A stretch of DNA of 64,000 bases from Trichodelitschia bisporula. Its lineage: Eukaryota. Below are positions 5,888 through 43,374 of the stretch, piece after piece. Location: contig ML996696.1 in NCBI GenBank assembly GCA_010356995.1, positions 932,364 through 996,363 on the forward strand. The letters run 5' to 3'. Position numbers and translations under genes: made by a program. The notes beneath the pieces were generated by a model that was not told where the DNA came from, ran no database searches, and worked only from the letters and a program-made list of their open reading frames with translations. Position 1 is the stretch's first letter, and each line of letters opens with the position of its first letter.

Positions 5888-8586
5888 CTACTTCCTAAAC
5901 GTCCCACTCCTCCCCTCCCCTCCCCTCTGCACCCTACCCAGTCCACGGGGCGCATCCAACAACCCCCGAGCATACCCCTCAACCTGCCTCTTCTTCCCGC
6001 GCCCCGCCGGCGCCCCGCCCCTCCCCTCGCGAACCCGCCCATGCAACACACTCGGCTGTGCCTCATAATCAAACGGCACCGCCTCTACAGGTTCCACCGC
6101 AGCCCCCCCTCCCCCCTCCTCCGCCTTCTTCTTCGCCTCCGCCTTCGCCGCCTTCCTAGCACGCTTCTTCTCCTTCCCCGCCGCGCGCTTGCGCGCCATC
6201 CGCGCCGCGCGCCCGGCCTCGCCCTCAGGCTCGGGCATCGTGTCTTCCCCTGCAAGTATTTCACCTTCGTCCCCCTCCTCGACTTCTCCGCCCTCCAACG
6301 CACCGTCCATATCTCCCTCCTCTTCCCCTTCTTCAGTCTGCGGGACAACCAGCTCGCCCTCACTCTCCGCCATCCGTTCCCACCCCTTCTTCCTCTTCGT
6401 CCCCCGCCCCCCCAGGCCCTTAACGCTGAACACGTCGTCCACAGCCGCAGCACTAATCCTCTCCTCCTCACGGACAAACACATGCTTCGCCCCCGCCGCG
6501 CGCACCGTATCCTCAGCCGCACCGAAGACATCAGCCCCAACATCAGGCAGCGGCAGCGCAAGCCTAACATCCGTATGCACATTGCGCTTCTGGGCGAACA
6601 CCCCGCCAACAGCCCGCAACGCAGGTCCCCAGAAGCGGCTCGCGGGCGCGGGGTCGGCGTGTGCGATCGGGGCCGCGGGGGGTGCCCCATCTAACATAGC
6701 TGCGTCGTCCGGCGAAGCCTCCTTCGCGGCTTCGGCTTTGACAGCGGCTTTAGCAGCGGCCTTGGCCTCGCGGACCGCAGCGCGTTTGTGGTAGCCTTCG
6801 TCGATGACGGCTTCGACTTCGCGCATGACGGTGTTCATGTCCGGGCCGTTTTTGCCGTCTTCTACTGCCTTTGCGACGACGGCTATGATGTCGTCGCCGC
6901 GGAGGCGCATGATGGGGGAGACCTGCCCGGCGACCTGGTAGAGTTTGGTTTTATCCGTCGGGAGACTACGGGCGATGCTGAAGAGCGCGTGGTTGGTCAT
7001 GACATAGTGAATACTCTCATCCTCCTGCCTAGCCACACCATCGCGCCAGTGGTGCAGCGCGCGGAAAGCGGCGAATTGTTCGGGGGAGAACATAGCCGGT
7101 GTGCGGAAGAGTTGCTTGTACCACCCTATTGGGCCGAGGCCGTGTGCGACGTCGTAAACCGGGTATTCGTAGCGCTGGAGCGAGGTTTCCTTGCTCTTGT
7201 CCTGCACCTGCCGGATTAGGTTGCTGTCTGGGTCGGAGGAGGAGAGCGAGGTGGAGGAGGCGATGAGTTGGTTGCGCAGGTTGTCGTAGATGTGCAGCAG
7301 GAAATGGGTGTCTGAGCGGGCGTAGGCGAGGAGGTCGGCGGAGAGGGGACGCGTGCGCCAGTCCGCGAGCTGGTGCTGCTTTTGCGCTTCGAAATTGATG
7401 AACTTGAGGAGTAGATATGCGAGGCTCTTCGCTGGGTAGTTGAGCGCGCAGGCTGCGTGGTACGTATCGAACAGGCCGACGACGTAGAGGCCCAGATCGC
7501 GCTGCAGCCAGATGATGTCCGATTGGGCGCCGTGGAATACCTTCAAGACCTTTGGGTTGGCAAAGACCTCGTTTAGGCACTCCAGGCGCCGCCGCCATGG
7601 CTTCAGCGTGTCGACGATCCAGTCGCGGTCGCGTGTGCTGATCTGCATCAGGCATACGATGCCGGGGTACGAGCGGTGGTCGTGGTGCTCGAGGTCGATG
7701 GCGACTTCCTTCACTTTCTTCAGTTCTTTGAGCATCTCGGCCAGGCCGTCTAGAGTGTCGACAAAGGTTGCCTCTGTCTTGTCAAACGGTGGGTAGGGCC
7801 GCGACTCTGCGGTGGTGTAGAGTGAGTTGGGGAACTCGTAAGCCTCGATTTCGTCCTGGTAGGGGTGCCCATAACCGTTGGTTCCGTATCCAATGCTTTC
7901 TTTCAACGGCATCATAGCGTGGGGCTTCTGCGTTAACAGTGGCTTGAATTTCCGGCCCTCAGAGTTGTCCTGCTTGTCATCGAACAGCGTCTGCGGCTTC
8001 TCAATATCATTTTTCGTCCGCGGCATGCCCTTATGCTGCGGTCTGACGGGCAACGCCGCCGGCGCCGTAGGAGCAGGAATTTGCTGCTCCCATCAGCTCT
8101 AATCTCTTCGGACGAAAGAAAACTCACCTCAGGCAACCCATTCCTCGCCCTCTTCACCCCATCCAAGCACCCATCCGCCCTCTCAAGCAAGCTATCGAGG
8201 ACGTCAACCACGTCCCTCCAGCCCGTATCCAAGTCCTCTACATCGCGCAGGCGGACACCGGCGCCGGCAGCAGGTGGAGGGTTACGTACACCCGTATTGC
8301 GTGTATGAGCGGCCTGAACCTGCGGACCTGCACCGGACGACGCGACCGAAGCATCGCCCGCGGCGCGCTGAAGCAGGCGCTCGGCAAGCGAGAGAAGGCG
8401 CGCATTTTGGGCGTCGAGTTGGGCGCCTACGTCTCGGTTCAGGGTGCGTTGGAAGGGGAGGTCTGTCGCGACGAGGGCGTTTGCGGCGCGGGTGGTTTGG
8501 AGGAGGGAGGAGGTTATGGTGGTGTAGAGGGCGGTGATGGGGGAGGGTGTCGGGTCGGTCTCGGGGGATGGAGAGTTAGATGACAT
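5888..8586 (-). CDS. RRP6: Exosome-associated 3'-5' exoribonuclease Rrp6 (PMC2NT, DEDD exonuclease and HRDC domains); intron 8127-8084
   Basis: Motifs VAIDLEHHDHRSY, CLMQISTRDRDWIVDTL, FHGAQSDIIWLQRDLG, QLADWRTRPL, YARSDTHFLL and HRDC WRDGVARQEDES. A 44-nt intron joins ORF 7933-8586 to ORF 5888-8053. Confidence 0.95.
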
Positions 8587-11272
8587 TGTTGGGTTGGACG
8601 GGCATTTGTGGTGGTTTAGGGGGGAAAATTGGTGGTGATGGTGAGGGAGGAGGTGGAGTGGTCGTGATGGCCGAAAAGTTCTGACGGGACACGACGTTTG
8701 GCTTATCGATAAGAGACGCGCTTGGCGCGTTTACGGGTGAGGCTGGCGGGGCGGGCGAATCGTGACTGATCGACTGGGCCAGCCTTGCGGCGTTTGATGC
8801 TGTTGGTTAGAAATGTATGGAGCGTCGGGCGAAATCACACTTAAAAAATGGGTTCGATAGCTGAGAAGGCAGTTTTACTTCGCGGCATGCAGACAAACAG
8901 TTCCTAAAGATCTACGATTGCGGACGATGCGGAATGCTCCTTGTGTACGGATACAGAATGCAACAACGCTTTGAGCCGCAGAATACCATCTCTTGAGGAA
9001 ATGGACTGTGCATTTAGACGTCAGAAGGGTGGCTTGATTGGCAGATGTTTCGGTTCCCCCCTCCTTCTCACAAGACATCGGCCTGTGGCCAATTGGCGAA
9101 ATGGGAGCAGTCCTCCGTTGCCTCTCCGTTGCCAGATTACCCTGACCAGGAAGAGACACCGAGCCTCATCGCGTGGGAGATGGGCAGCCGGATCTACAAG
9201 GTCTTCTTCCTAGGCTTAGCGATCGTTGCTAAAGACTACCCAGTCCCCCTCTTAACCTCGTCTCAGTGATATCAACACAGCTTCATGTGCCTCAAGTTAT
9301 GACAGCTCATCACAACACCTGGCTTTCTCTGGTCGAACATGCTGATGAACAATTAGGTTATGATTAATGGCCTTGCTTCACCGCTTGAGCCCTCGGAGAT
9401 CAAACATCGTGTCTCTCCATCAGACTTACGATCGTCACAAGGAGCATCATCTCGAGGCTGAGTTCCATGTGGGAGTACAAGGGTTAAATGGAAAGGTTCG
9501 GAAAGGCAGGGATGCATCCGAGCATAAAGTGCCTGTCCATGTACCTCCTTCGGTACTCGATATATGGCCCTTGCTGCCACATTTCCGAGAGGTCACCAGT
9601 CCAGCCTGTGCGATCTATTGCCAGGAGTACTCGCTTCTTGGGTAGGACTTGGATGTTTCAAACCGATTATGCTGTCCGACATAGCACATGTCCATGCTCA
9701 GTCATAAGAGGGCGTCTCTTTCTCGCTTCTCTCCATGACCATGACGCTGTCTGCATAGAGTAGGACGAAGTGTAGTCGCTTCCTCTGGTCGGTTCGGAAA
9801 TTTCCAGCTCGAGTGAGAGAGTGTGGTGATGCCAGGAAGCGTTCTGGGAGATCTTGGACAGGGACTGATGCAAACTGGGGACGGGGTGAAGCGAGTATGG
9901 GTCGTTGACACTTCCGTCCGTCAGTCAAGTCGACCAGCGTCACGACTTGACAGACGGGTCACCTGTCCCTCATCATTAGCAGCAACAACCTCACGATCAC
10001 TCACACTTCGAACATCACCACTCCAACTCCCTCCCCATAAACCCTAGAGAGCCTCGGCTAGACCCGAAACACTGGCACATGTCCCGACAACATCAGTAGC
10101 GGCAACCAGGACCGGGCGCGCTGCAGTGTGCAATCTAGACAAAGTGCGCCCGTCCAGGGCCCGGCAGTTCATCCCATCGTCATTCCATCCTTCAATCGAC
10201 TCTGGCCAGCTCCAATCTCTCCATAAACCAGGCACAACACTTACCAGTAGCGAGCCAGCACTCCGTTGACTTGACTTTCCAGTCCCGGCCCTCCCCCTTC
10301 CGTCACCCCCGGTCTCACAACTCTCAACCCTAGTACACCACACTGCCCCTCGTCCCCGCACTCCCGCCTCGCCTGGCAGCGCATCCCGGCGCGGATGGCA
10401 CATGGCATGGCGCGTGCGGACGGGCGGACGGACGGGCTTCGAGAAGAGTGAGAGAAGGTGTGCGCATGGACGGGGTGCGGAGATGCGGGGGATGCGATGA
10501 TGGCCGTTGGGCCAGGGATCGTGGGGATTGGGGGGAGTACAGGACTCGGATGAAGGGGGTGGGTGATCCAGATGCAGGTACGGGCGATAGGAGGAGTGTT
10601 TGGTGTTCGGGGGAGGATGGGGATTGAGGGCGAGATTGCGACGGTTGCTACTTGTTACGCTGGATGGGGCGTGGCGGTGTTTATTAGATGGTGGGTTCTG
10701 CGGTCCAGTCCGTCCTAGTGTCGAGGCTACTTGATCTGCTTCTTTACCTCGTGCCAGCTTTAGTTGTGCTTCTAGAACTACACGTGCGGATATCTCTACT
10801 TTTATCTACACACCTCGCCTCGTTTCTTCTTGAAGTTCTTCTCTTTCATCCCCATCTCCCGATTCTCGCCTCCGCCGCTTACAGACCGCTACTGTCAAGC
10901 AAGCTGATCGCCTTGTCGCGCACAGCCAATCGAATCGCCTCACGGCCTGCTTACTACTGCAGGCCACACAAGCCGGCCGCAGCCCAAAGCCATTCCACCT
11001 CAATCCACCTCATCCCCCCCATCAACTTCGCCCACAAACCCCACCGCTCTCGTTGCATCTCCAACATCACCACCTCCATATCTCCACCTCTCTCTAATCA
11101 CCAACTGGTCTTCCACCTCATCCTCACCGTCACCCACCAACATCCACGCGACGTGAAACCCGCCAAAACACCCTCACTCAAACACACACACCGCTCCTTC
11201 AACCCATCATTCCACCGCCACAATGGCGCCCTGAACAACCCAAAGCAACATACACACACCGAGGCATCCGCC

Positions 11273-12469
11273 ATGGATTTCATAGTACGTCCTCCCCTCC
11301 CCCAATGGCGCCTCTAACTAACACACACCCAGCTCTCCCTCGCCCACTTCTGCGAAGTCCACGGCCCCACCTCCATCCTCTGCACCCAACTCGCCCCCCA
11401 AACCTGCACGTCCTGCCTCCACAGCCATCAATACACCCACTCCCCCTCCCCCACCTCCAGTCCAACCTCCCCCCCGCCCTCACCAGACGAATGGCTCTAC
11501 AACACCCCCCTCTCCTCCCCCAGCAGCCCCGGCGCACACCTCTCCACCTCAAACCCCTACTTCGCCGTCCCCCCGCGAAAAGAGTCCTACCCCCTCCCGG
11601 ACCCCACCTCCTGCGACACCTGCGACGCCTGCGCCTTCCTCGTCCCCTCCACCCTCTCCTCGAACCTCCCCGCCGGAGCCCCGGGCTCCCCAACGCTCGA
11701 CGGCAAAGGCCGACACGGCTCCCCCGTCCTGCGCACCACACAATCCATCCTCGTCCCCACCCTCACCCATAATAACCCTTCCCATCCCTCCTCCGACCCC
11801 CCCTCCCCCACCTCCTCCGCCTCCTCCACCTCCTCAGCCAGCACTACCCCCCCAACACACACCCACCGCCTAACCTACGTCTCAACCCGACACCCGCCTA
11901 ATCCCGGCGCCTACACCCTTTTGCGGCGCGCCTGCATCCGCACCCTGAGCTGCGAGAACCTCCCCCGCGGCTCCCCCTCCGGGCCCCTGTACTTCGGCGA
12001 CCCGATCGCGGGCTACACCGTCGCATACGTCTTCCGCCTCCCCGACCCGCGCGCGCGCGGCAGGCGGCGCACATACGCGCTGCTCGCGTTAGGCGGGCGG
12101 GATGCATGGCGCGTGTCCGCAGCGTACGTGCGCCTGACGCGCAAATTCGAGCAAATCGCCGCTAGGATCGTGGCACTCGCCGAAAAGGCCCTCGAAACCC
12201 AGAACCACGAACGTCGTGACTCAACGGGCATGCCCAACGGCCGGGGCAGCGCTCCGTCGTTGGGGGGAAGCGGAAAGGGGACCCTGAGTGATGTTAGTTC
12301 TTTTCTGGTGGCGAAGACGCGCGATCCGGATGGGTTTTGGGCGAGGGGGGGGAGGGATGTGGGCAGGGCGAAGGGGTTGGCGGAGATTTGTGGGCGGGAG
12401 GATTTTTTTGTGGAACTTCATGCTAGGTTTTGTGTTATTCTTGCGGGGTTGGTGGGGGAGGAGGGGTAN
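11273..12469 (+). CDS. LST7: Folliculin/Lst7-family protein; intron 11285-11332; probable stop codon TAN at 12467-12469 abuts an assembly gap
   Basis: The spliced start MDFI/LSLAHFCEVHGPTSILCTQ and RRACIRTLSCENLP...GPLYFGDPIAGYTVAYVFRLPDPRARGRRRTYAL are folliculin N-terminal signatures. Exon 2 is in frame with ORF 11921. Confidence 0.88.
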
Positions 12470-12518
12470 NNNNNNNNNNNNNNNNNNNNNNNNNNNNNNN
12501 NNNNNNNNNNNNNNNNNN
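12469..12518. other. Assembly gap (50 N)
   Basis: Run of n characters. Confidence 1.
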
Positions 12519-12710
12519 GAGTTCGGGTGCTGCGTTTTAGCGTGTTGATGTTACTGTTGTTGTTGTGAGGTTGTTTTTTGTTCTGGGAATGAGGGGGATA
12601 CCCGGTGTGGGAGAACGGGGTGCGGGTTGATTCATGATGATAGATAATACGTGTGTGAGAGCGAGAGGGTGGTATTACTGAGACGACCATGTACGATATA
12701 CGATGACGGG

Positions 12711-13330
12711 AGGGGGGTTGGACGCGGGCTCTCAGCAAGCATGGGTGGAGTTTCTCTTCGCTTTTCGCTCCTTCGCCATGTCTCGCGACGAAGCGGAGAA
12801 TGAAGAGAAGCTCCACCATGCCTTGCTGAGAGCCTGTGTCTGGACCCCCCTGGGTTCGGGAGGGGGGGTCGGACACGAGTTCTTAATTCATTTGCACATG
12901 GGCTTCTCTCCGTTTTTTTTGCGCCGTACACTTCGCGACGGAGTGGAGGATGGAGAGAAGCGTATTACGCAGATGATCTGCGAGCCCGCGTCCGCCTTCC
13001 CATGGGGGGCGGTAGGGGGCTGGACGCGTGTTCCCTGGAAGTTCGATGGAGGCACTCTTCGTCCTCCGCTTCTTTGCTGTGGCTTGGTGACCGGGGCCGG
13101 TTGCTTATGCTATGACGCGCGACGAAGCGGGGTGTGAGGAGTCCTTCCACCCGAATTTTTCTGGGAGCGTGTGTCTGGCCCACTCCCTGGAGGGGCCGGA
13201 CGCGGGTGCTCAGTTCATCTGGGTGTACGCTTCTCTCCGTTTTTCTGCTTCGGACACTGAGTGAGGGGGTTGGAGGATGGAGAGAGGCGTATACGCAGAT
13301 GATCTGGGAGCTCGCGTCTGTTAGACGCCC
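12711..13330 (+). ncRNA. Tandem array of four paralogous long hairpins (putative milRNA or structured ncRNA precursor cluster)
   Basis: Hairpins at about 12711-12851, 12862-13000, 13017-13181 and 13192-13330. Each opens with GGGG.YGGAC(G/A)CG and closes with GYGTCYG followed by a C-run. Stems are about 40-55 bp and rich in G-U pairs on the + strand. Confidence 0.6.
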
Positions 13331-13348
13331 TCACCCCCTGGAGGAGAG

Positions 13349-13504
13349 GATGAGGTTGACTTCGAGACGGGTGTTGTGTTAATATGCAATTCTATGATGA
13401 GAAGGTCTTCCTTCGGCGCGCAGCGGTGATGTTGATATCCCCGCTTTTACAAGATGAGGGGTTCGCCCTTCAGCACCGAGTTCTAGCGGTGATGTCGATA
13501 TGCA
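13349..13504. repeat. Three degenerate ~50-bp tandem units (GATGAG...CTTC...GGTGATGTYGATAT)
   Basis: agcggtgatgttgatat at 13422-13438 and agcggtgatgtcgatat at 13485-13501, with a more degenerate copy at 13349-13388. Confidence 0.55.
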
Positions 13505-13692
13505 TACTCCTACAGTCCATGTACACATCAAAATACTCAGACATGAATTGATAGAGCGGAGAAACGCCATGCCCATGCCCATGCCCAACCCTTCACACCA
13601 TCATCTACTCGCCCATCCTACACTTTCTTTTGGTTTCGTCATCGGCCGCACAGTAGTCGTTCACATCTCCAGTCCTCGCCGTCCCGCAGAGC

Positions 13693-14109
13693 TCATGACC
13701 CCTTCCTCAACCACGTGTCGTCCGACTCCTTGCTCTCTACGCGTGCCTCTTCGATCAGGACGTCTATTCCGCGGTCTTTGAGGGCTTTCTGTCTCCCGTC
13801 AGCATAATCCTCACCCGCCTCAACCCCTCCACCCCAAAAAAAAAAGGGAGCTAAGCAACGTACATTCAAACAAGCCTTATACTCCACAAACAGCGGCGCA
13901 CACTCATCGCTCCTCGCCGCGCCACGGAGGAACTCTACCATCCGTCAGGATAGATACATGAAAAGTGGAGGGCCGGGAGACGTACTTTCGCTGTACCATT
14001 TTAAGAAGCAGCTATCATACCGCCTCCCCTGCGTTAGCTAGGGAACGGGGGGAAGGGGAGACGCGGACTCTTTAACTTCATTACACTCCGGCGCGAGGGA
14101 GGCGGACAT
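13693..14109 (-). CDS. MDM35: Mdm35/TRIAP1 twin CX9C mitochondrial intermembrane-space protein; introns 14068-14024, 13985-13935, 13863-13789
   Basis: Spliced translation MSASLAPECNEVKERYDSCFLKWYSEKFLRGAARSDECAPLFVEYKACLNKALKDRGID... with twin CX9C. Confidence 0.93.
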
Positions 14110-14862
14110 TTCGTTCTTCTTTGATTTCCTTTTCGGGGGCACTGGAGGCGGGATGGTTGGTAGCTGTGTGTGTTTGAATGTTTAGGTATTTGGGTGACTT
14201 CGTATGTGAAGAATAGGTCGTGAATACAAAATTGGGCGGTTTGTATCGAAGTGAGAATGGTATGCGGTTTGATGCCGACGTCACGCCGCCCGCGCCAAGC
14301 AACCGGCCCGGACCCGCGCTCCAGGAACAAAGCGGCGCGTGGCGTCGGGTGGGATTGGCGAATCAGATGGGCGGTGGGTGGACGACGTGCCCTGGGCTGG
14401 ATGGGGAAGGAGATTTGAGAAGAGGTAGGTATGTTAGCTTGGGCCGTCGTGATTTGGATTTATAGGATTGAGTTGCTAGCCTGTGATAAGCAGCCAGGAG
14501 TCGGTTCCGGGAGACAATGCTACGCGAGGTAATCGATGAGGTCGTAAATGACTAGTCACACACAGCACAATTCACGCGAACAGAGCATTTGAAAGCATGA
14601 TGACGACTACGACTACGGTCGGCCAGGGGGTTCAGTTCTCTACCTCATTCCATCCACAGCAGAACGCAGGGCCTCGTCCCCTGGACAACAGGAATACAGA
14701 CACACACCGCTAGCCGCTTTTCAACAGGTGCCACAAGACCCCTATCAGAAGAACTCAATCCTTCCAGCGCCTAGCCACACCCTACACATAACCGTTACAC
14801 AGAAGAATCGAATCTCAGAGGCTTCGAACCACCCCCCAACCGCACCGTCTCACCAACACCAC

Positions 14863-42932: not shown

Positions 42933-43374
42933 GCAACCCCCCCACCCCCTATAATTGACAACAAACGGTAGGGGGCGAGAGGATACACCGGATGCTGCGG
43001 GCCGATCTGATCGCAACATCGGGTGCCGGCGCGGGCTTCACTGGGACCTCTTCGCCAGCGTCGGTCTCTGGGGACTTTGGACTGTTTTCGCAACAAGACA
43101 TGAAAAAGCCTTCAACAGACTGATTTTTCCTTTTTCTTTTTCTCTTTGATCGCGGCTGACTTGCCCTGCGGCTATTCAACAATGCCGCGGGGTATAGATA
43201 GCAGGTTGGGGGGAAAGGGGGAGGGAAGATGGTGCTGGGGAGGAATGGTTCTGGGAGTTTGTCGTCGACGAGCCGGACGAAGCAATGATACCCCGTTATG
43301 GACCCTGATGCTTTCGTGTGCCAGTGCCTAGCCCTGTTTTTGGACATTACTCTGGATATTGGAAGGTGGAGATT

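Follow-up and report, generated by a model that had tools for sequence, protein, structure and literature searches.

At positions 12711-13332 of a 64-kb window of the Trichodelitschia bisporula genome (the whole stretch analyzed, 64,000 nucleotides; NCBI GenBank assembly GCA_010356995.1, contig ML996696.1, positions 932,364 to 996,363 of the forward strand), four adjacent fold-backs lie between two converging genes, an upstream folliculin/Lst7-like gene (LST7) on the + strand and a Mdm35/TRIAP1-like gene on the - strand. Each fold-back is 140 to 165 nt long, and the linkers between them measure just 8 to 13 nt. Read on the + strand, the first hairpin of this array (hp1, 12711-12851) has 61 pairs, 7 of them G-U, and a terminal loop of 8 nt; hp2 (12862-13001) has 55 pairs with 12 G-U; hp3 (13017-13181), a paralogue of hp1, has 74 pairs with 20 G-U and a 33-nt insertion that forms an additional apical mini-hairpin; and hp4 (13190-13332), of which hp2 is a paralogue, has 61 pairs with 13 G-U and an unbroken 23-bp run. 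A preliminary description of this DNA had pointed to four back-to-back fold-backs, a basal run of 19 pairs with 6 G-U in hp3, the uninterrupted 23-bp run of hp4, and a common basal motif spaced 151, 151, and 176 nt from start to start. Both runs are present in the folds, and the motif is recovered as a direct-repeat family. A construction of the array from heptamer-type short repeats was rejected, as Tandem Repeats Finder (TRF) reports no short-period tandem repeat inside it.

Each hairpin was folded singly as RNA, with 200 dinucleotide-preserving shuffles per unit as controls. The minimum free energies on the + strand are -107.6 kcal/mol for hp1 (z = -12.1), -74.0 kcal/mol for hp2 (z = -6.8), -100.2 kcal/mol for hp3 (z = -6.8), and -93.0 kcal/mol for hp4 (z = -9.5), and 0 of 200 shuffles is as stable for any of them, so that the four fold-backs are borne out, with folding far beyond the shuffled controls. 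The corresponding values on the - strand are -91.1 (z = -11.5), -57.5 (z = -5.2), -60.6 (z = -1.97), and -56.9 kcal/mol (z = -5.9), and 9 of the 200 shuffles of hp3 equal the native stability. The comparison of both strands with dinucleotide shuffles, which the preliminary description had asked for beforehand, thus returns unequal stabilities, the - strand being the weaker in all four units. When the window was scanned on both strands in 150-nt windows at a 25-nt step, with energies corrected for G+C content, the array gave the most extreme composition-corrected energies of the 64 kb on both strands, with an excess of -55 to -61 kcal/mol. The arms of hp2 can also pair with those of hp4 (12858-13333), better than with their own partners, and folding 12708-13333 as a whole yields -391.8 kcal/mol, with hp3 enclosed by a duplex of hp2 and hp4; the four local hairpins reach -374.8 kcal/mol, a difference of 17 kcal/mol. 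Co-transcriptional folding would favor the local hairpins over this nested fold.

Direct-repeat families connect all four hairpins, with pairwise identities of 78% between hp2 and hp4 and 73% between hp1 and hp3. Since hp1 resembles hp3 and hp2 resembles hp4, the comparison indicates that a two-hairpin unit of about 300 to 330 bp was duplicated. The four-way alignment has a consensus structure of 49 pairs, in which 90.3% of the cells are paired, as against 45% to 55% when the partners are slid by 1 to 3 columns. Double-sided changes occur at 12 of the 49 aligned pairs; the shuffled mean is 7.2, only 3 of 500 shuffles reach 12, and the slid controls give 1 to 5. The earlier view of the fold-backs as paralogous is therefore upheld and extended, with hairpin-preserving covariation in excess of both shuffled and slid controls. 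Differences between hp2 and hp4 fall on 13 of 107 paired but 18 of 33 unpaired positions, a contrast with some circularity, since mutation of a stem position turns it into an unpaired one. It is on the 3' arm that hp2 and hp4 share their longest near-identical stretches, of 22 nt (95%) and 27 nt (93%), as would be expected if a 3'-arm product were sequence-constrained; a 21-nt motif of this arm had 0 exact matches in metagenome contigs. As far as four paralogues can tell, the sequences diverged without loss of the hairpin state, which may have been maintained at the level of RNA or of DNA.

The choice between these levels draws on the non-Watson-Crick positions. On the + strand, 52 of the 251 pairs are G-U, and the 1x1 mismatches comprise 4 A-C and 12 of other kinds. 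If the two strands were equivalent, a split of 52 to 4 between G-U and A-C would have a P of about 5e-12. Because the flanking sequence is G+T-rich on this strand as well, transitions were also let follow the flank composition, in a rough model made for this analysis; this predicts a G-U:A-C ratio of about 2:1, and the observed ratio is 13:1 (P 1e-6 to 3e-6). Of the 52 G-U pairs, 27 have their U in the 5' arm and 25 have it in the 3' arm, and the differences between paralogues include both C-to-U-type and A-to-G-type changes. One-strand deamination by repeat-induced point mutation (RIP), the signature of which is C-to-T in CpA context with raised TpA/ApT and lowered (CpA+TpG)/(ApC+GpT), was tried as an origin of the bias. 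The U precedes A in only 4 of the 52 G-U pairs, and the two indices of the array (0.52 and 1.15) are as in the rest of the window (0.66-0.67 and 1.13-1.17), so RIP-type deamination does not explain the G-U bias. The + strand excess of G-U over few A-C described earlier is thus confirmed, at 52 versus 4, and the preference for the + strand drawn from it survives both the local G+T correction and the RIP check. The simplest reading would be that changes keeping the + strand RNA helix were tolerated and mirror-image changes were removed. Overall, selection for a structured RNA on the + strand accounts best for the evidence, and the array is apparently a single-copy set of four homologous long RNA hairpins kept foldable on that strand.

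The same numbers bear on a different origin, which we consider unlikely: that the array is a decaying foldback DNA repeat, akin to a miniature inverted-repeat transposable element (MITE), which was locally tandem-duplicated, has no RNA function, is passively transcribed, and owes its G-U excess to regional composition pressure. Units of about 150 bp that are almost wholly inverted repeat and form long hairpins when transcribed are indeed MITE-like as these elements are outlined in PMC1784062 and PMC9641971, and hairpin look-alikes are known to arise from MITEs (as outlined in PMC3495686 and PMC1784062). Each unit has the size of a MITE and consists almost entirely of inverted repeat, the latter a property of any long hairpin and so of little weight for a MITE. 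The + strand flanks are G+T-rich too (0.69 and 0.61), G-U pairs reach 21% to 27% of pairs, and the array is missing from all relatives examined. However, unlike MITEs the array is GC-rich, with a strong one-strand G-U bias that the flank composition does not predict, and no target-site duplication or common flank was found around any unit or around the array, the linkers differing between units. The paralogues are 22% to 27% apart yet each about 90% paired, with the 12 double-sided changes mentioned above, a combination that neutral decay would not keep.

Copies were sought in the window and in public sequencing data, which comprised four runs in the form of contigs: X1 and X2, from one sample of one study, and the DNA runs X3 and X4. 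The four units found no further hairpin copy in the 64 kb by blastn, and the only other match there to a covariance model built from them scored 7 bits (E 5). The contigs of both DNA runs cross the array unbranched. Because a k-mer assembly passes the array in this way, we infer that near-identical copies elsewhere in the genome are absent; old, diverged copies may exist. One X4 contig matches from 12766 onward after 255 unlike letters, which could mean that a second, incomplete copy exists, that a short stretch matches by chance, or that the fold-back misled the assembly. The MITE alternative that the preliminary description had named accordingly finds no support in the tests made, which gave no target-site duplication, no copy in 64 kb, and unbranched DNA contigs.

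A protein-coding gene was rejected as an explanation of the array. The open frames over it, of 151 aa on the + strand and of about 120 and 154 aa on the - strand, yielded one weak, repeat-inflated match only among 1.84 billion representative proteins, and Pfam has no family for the 151-aa and about 120-aa frames. The earlier remark that no credible open reading frame explains the region holds in the sense that frames exist, with neither a domain nor a credible homologue. In Rfam 15 the array has five matches, all to microRNA (miRNA) hairpin models and all at 19.9 to 32.5 bits against gathering thresholds of 76 to 107; the best is mir-4716, with 32.5 bits against a threshold of 76.

The LST7 coding sequence (11273-12469, +; PF11704, E 1.7e-43) has one intron at 11285-11332, the GT..AG joint of which (11284/11333) is found in RNA contigs. 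The last base of its TAA stop is the first base hidden by a run of 50 N (12469-12518), and a loose contig end after 12468 starts with A. This assembly gap corresponds to a long G homopolymer on the + strand immediately after the stop: the contigs of X1, X3, and X4 end at the gap edges, those of X1 with G-run loose ends on both sides, and X2 restarts past the gap at 12523. The G tract may form a G-quadruplex in the 3' untranslated region (UTR). The LST7 product is 100% identical to the public protein P0001, which NCBI assigns to Trichodelitschia bisporula, and the next best relatives are about 50% identical. The P0001 model (328 aa) departs from the window frame (12277-12660) after "TLSD" and ends with four other residues, implying a predicted intron across the N gap. 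The in-frame segment skipped in this way is well conserved in 21 homologues, and the implied splice joint is absent from all RNA contigs; the gap has probably given rise to an artefactual model.

Downstream of LST7, the spacer between its stop and hp1 (12519-12710, +) is G+U-rich, with a 3'-UTR-like composition (G+T 0.69 on the + strand), and the array lies about 240 nt plus the gap past the LST7 stop and 360 nt past the Mdm35-like stop. The Mdm35/TRIAP1-like coding sequence (UPF0203; 13693-14109, -; PF05254, 29.1 bits versus a cut-off of 27) encodes 81 aa and has three introns, with CT..AC joints at 13788/13864, 13934/13986, and 14022/14068 that occur in the RNA runs only. At 13768-13858, DNA run X3 offers three alternative 60-nt contigs with depths of 2.7, 13.2, and 321.7, two of which differ by one letter; this is a minor variant or a sequencing-error bubble in the first Mdm35-like intron. 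About 4 kb upstream, at 5888-8727 on the - strand, lies a gene for an Rrp6-like nuclear exosome 3'-5' exonuclease with PMC2NT, DNA_pol_A_exo1, and HRDC domains, which is ordinary gene content and of note as an exosome nuclease that acts on non-coding RNA.

Two further hairpins lie elsewhere in the window. The one at 400-546 is long and unrelated to the array; its roughly 60 pairs give -74.0 kcal/mol (z = -8.2) on the - strand and a weaker -58.9 kcal/mol (z = -7.0) on the + strand. It is separated by about 1.7 kb from the 3' end of an ammonium-transporter-like gene on the - strand, beyond which it lies, and may be the same kind of strand-biased hairpin. The other, at 43101-43250, forms on the + strand only (-65.5 vs -25.8 kcal/mol), where a U/C-rich and a G/A-rich run pair with each other and enclose a perfect apical stem of 13 bp.

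X1 and X2 carry six exon-exon joints, one of them GT..AG, from a + strand gene, and five CT..AC, from - strand genes; as these are missing from the DNA runs, X1 and X2 are RNA-derived. In both RNA runs a single contig spans from 12519 or 12523 to 13788 with zero differing letters, and a second X1 contig covers LST7 as far as the G tract. The array is transcribed, strand and ends aside, and an absence of transcription, which would have spoken against an RNA element, is not what these two runs show. Contigs give no strand, ends, or level, and gaps in RNA cover carry no evidential weight (14340-14606 is nearly bare in X1 and X2, and 12322-12468 is bare in X2 only).

The array contig of X1 continues via spliced Mdm35-like exons to 14216, the X2 piece being listed up to 13788. 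With one RNA contig per run linking 12519/12523-13788 to spliced Mdm35-like exons, the array could be placed in the - strand Mdm35-like mRNA, as part of a long 3' UTR of more than 1.1 kb, folding in its weaker - strand form. The - strand of hp1, hp2, and hp4 still folds well (z of -11.5, -5.2, and -5.9), but all 52 G-U pairs become A-C mismatches there and hp3 barely beats its shuffles (z = -1.97). A contig over two converging genes, moreover, is not one transcript and does not show a single one. The base composition of transcript ends also speaks against this placement, which we regard as very unlikely. The sense-strand G+T fraction is 0.69 in the proximal 3' UTR of LST7, 0.55 in that of the Mdm35-like gene (13430-13689 on the - strand), and 0.66 in the 3' UTR of a neighboring GH17-like gene; it is 0.32 in the 5' UTR of LST7 and 0.26 in that of the Mdm35-like gene. 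The array is C+A-rich on the - strand, unlike the three 3' UTR stretches, and its G+T of 0.60 on the + strand fits a 3'-UTR-like + strand transcript. Within the spacer from hp4 to the Mdm35-like stop (13333-13692), the GC and AT skews switch sign at about 13400-13450, which is 250 to 300 nt past that stop and near the length of the GH17-like 3' UTR (270 nt). We infer from the skew that a + strand transcript domain spans the hairpins and would meet the end of the - strand mRNA near 13400. The contrast in sense-strand G+T over 10814-14862, low in the two 5' UTRs (0.26-0.32) and high in the three 3' UTR stretches (0.55-0.69), would, if general, be a means of orienting transcripts in this genome.

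If the array belongs to the + strand, it could still act without any small-RNA output, as a cis-acting RNA structure in the LST7 3' UTR or termination zone that works on its host transcripts. Possible roles are an exonuclease block, a platform for double-stranded-RNA-binding proteins, and a fail-safe terminator or insulator between the LST7 and Mdm35-like units. Such a structure explains the + strand folding bias and the 3'-UTR-like composition equally well; the array fills the gap between the converging genes with continuous RNA cover, and full-length hairpin RNA was stable enough for assembly from two RNA runs. On the other side, four copies of 55-74-bp stems far exceed the needs of known fungal 3'-end signals, and the terminal loops differ from those of yeast Rnt1 sites. 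A yeast-type RNase III (Rnt1) site is a short stem capped by an AGNN tetraloop, and an Rnt1 cleavage or termination hairpin was rejected on the strength of the 55-74-bp stems and of loops of at least 8 nt, or a non-AGNN tetraloop in hp3.

Comparison with relatives weighs on this question too. The set comprised 58 metagenome loci with LST7 homologues, whose identity does not exceed 53% in the main match, apart from a single short partial match at 61%. Against these loci, blastn of the four units returned three 14-nt chance matches only, and the hairpin covariance model had 0 matches at E 1. For a scan of folds downstream of LST7, 16 loci were omitted (near-duplicates, loci that ended at the match, and short partial matches), leaving 1431 windows from 42 of the 58; no comparable hairpin was found 3' of LST7 in these 42 loci, the best excess being -32 kcal/mol against -55 to -61 kcal/mol in the array. 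As the hairpins are missing downstream of distant LST7 genes, the array is no general requirement of the gene pair. Nor is conservation of the pair itself seen: tblastn with the Mdm35-like protein found no match at E 1e-3 in the 58 loci, a search that short exons may escape. Taken together, a purely cis-acting structure seems doubtful to us, and the foldback DNA and - strand UTR explanations fit less well than it does. As far as can be seen from these loci, the array appears to be lineage-specific.

Several known systems resemble the array in part. The polycistronic miRNA clusters of animals and plants, miR-17~92 for example, consist of paralogous hairpins with short linkers on one primary transcript. 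The array shares with them the short-linker paralogous hairpins and, in hp2 and hp4, a conservation that is clearest on one arm, but its stems are two to three times longer than those of animal pre-miRNAs and match no Rfam miRNA family at gathering score. A closer likeness is provided by the hairpin RNA (hpRNA) clusters of Drosophila, as they are presented in PMC10317233. In hp-CG4068, tandem hairpins from a common transcript (20 tandem copies in D. melanogaster) are diced by Dcr-2 into small interfering RNAs, and the target is mus308 (PMC10317233). Both systems have several homologous long hairpins arranged head-to-tail, apparently on one transcript, as well as tandem duplication and lineage specificity. 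The array differs in having 4 copies that are 22% to 27% apart, whereas the fly clusters have 9 to 20 near-identical ones, and in its G-U-rich stems, fungal host, and position in a downstream gene region between converging genes. In addition, the small RNAs, Dicer dependence, and target of the fly clusters are known, and the array is known from sequence and RNA contigs.

In fungi, single hairpins that yield microRNA-like RNAs (milRNAs) are known, the first having been described in 2010 in Neurospora crassa, according to the review PMC11413187, and the re-analysis by Johnson et al. 2022 (PMC9757828) is reported to grade most published fungal hairpin loci by replication and conservation. Like such precursors, the array is transcribed, folds into stem-loops, lies in non-coding or UTR sequence of a filamentous ascomycete, and falls within the size range of hairpin small-RNA loci; it is unlike them in forming a tandem family of four paralogues, and a mature small RNA is hypothetical here. 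The words cluster, tandem, and polycistron are absent from the main text of PMC9757828, supplements aside; PMC5066168 uses "milRNA cluster" for clusters of expression rather than of genome position, and "polycistronic" in the relevant part of one fungal milRNA review refers to something else. In the literature outside subscription journals we found no report of a genomic tandem cluster of paralogous hairpins in fungi, and no small-RNA work on Trichodelitschia bisporula appeared among the papers found to name the species. Single fungal milRNA hairpins being already known, the tandem paralogous array is the new feature, one that we did not find reported.

Our preferred interpretation, held tentatively and at somewhat less than an even chance, is that the + strand carries a hairpin-RNA or milRNA-like cluster specific to this lineage, located either in the LST7 3' UTR or downstream of it. 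Four consecutive stems of 55-74 bp are the kind of substrate that Dicer-type enzymes cut, and it is these Dicer-sized stems, together with the documented tandem hairpins of the fly, that lead us to prefer such a cluster. In this model, the array would most likely lie on a + strand transcript continuing from, or starting just after, LST7, that is, on an extended LST7 3' UTR or a downstream non-coding RNA ending at the 3' end of the converging Mdm35-like mRNA; both the role of the + strand as the functional strand and the linkage to LST7 are suggested by the folding bias and composition described above. The stems would be putative substrates of a Dicer-type RNase III, the locus would act as a hairpin-RNA or milRNA-like small-RNA cluster, and cutting of the hairpins would also sever or destabilize the host transcript. 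Dicer processing, small RNAs, and targets of the array are hypothetical. The clustered miRNA-like or structured non-coding RNA locus originally proposed has therefore gained paralogy, covariation, a + strand bias, and transcription, and its small-RNA part stays hypothetical.

A number of observations weigh against a hairpin-RNA cluster on the + strand. The covariation comes from only four sequences, all paralogues of one genome, and arm-to-arm DNA homogenization could be its source. G-U at 21% of pairs is high, and might also be given by relaxed constraint plus mutation pressure toward G+T. The RNA contig with the array also holds spliced exons of the - strand Mdm35-like gene, so the array could be part of both converging transcripts or of a long 3' UTR on the - strand. 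Efficient dicing predicts that an intact precursor should not assemble, contrary to what is seen in both RNA runs; over the duplex arms of Drosophila hpRNAs, RNA-seq signal is described as poor (PMC10317233). The closest LST7 proteins are about 50% identical, with loci that lack such hairpins, and provide no orthologue for comparison. No target was found in the 64-kb window, which is a small part of the genome.

In its fullest form, the hairpin-RNA cluster proposal would make the array the first clustered miRNA-like or hairpin-RNA gene family in a fungus: four paralogous precursors on one transcript, in the tail of the TORC1-pathway gene LST7, kept foldable by purifying selection at the RNA level long enough for compensatory changes to accumulate, with dicing that both releases small RNAs and cuts the host mRNA and so couples LST7 expression to small-RNA output. 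We regard this complete version as possible but on the doubtful side. The reality of selected miRNA-like genes in fungi is still disputed, and the locus offers internal evolutionary evidence, namely paralogue covariation and a strand-specific G-U bias, that is independent of small-RNA read counts. If small RNAs map to the array, it would be a clean case of the birth and duplication of a fungal hairpin-RNA gene and a counterpart of the tandem hpRNA clusters of flies. If none do, it would be an unusually large structured element between converging genes and a handle on 3'-end formation and transcript insulation in filamentous fungi.

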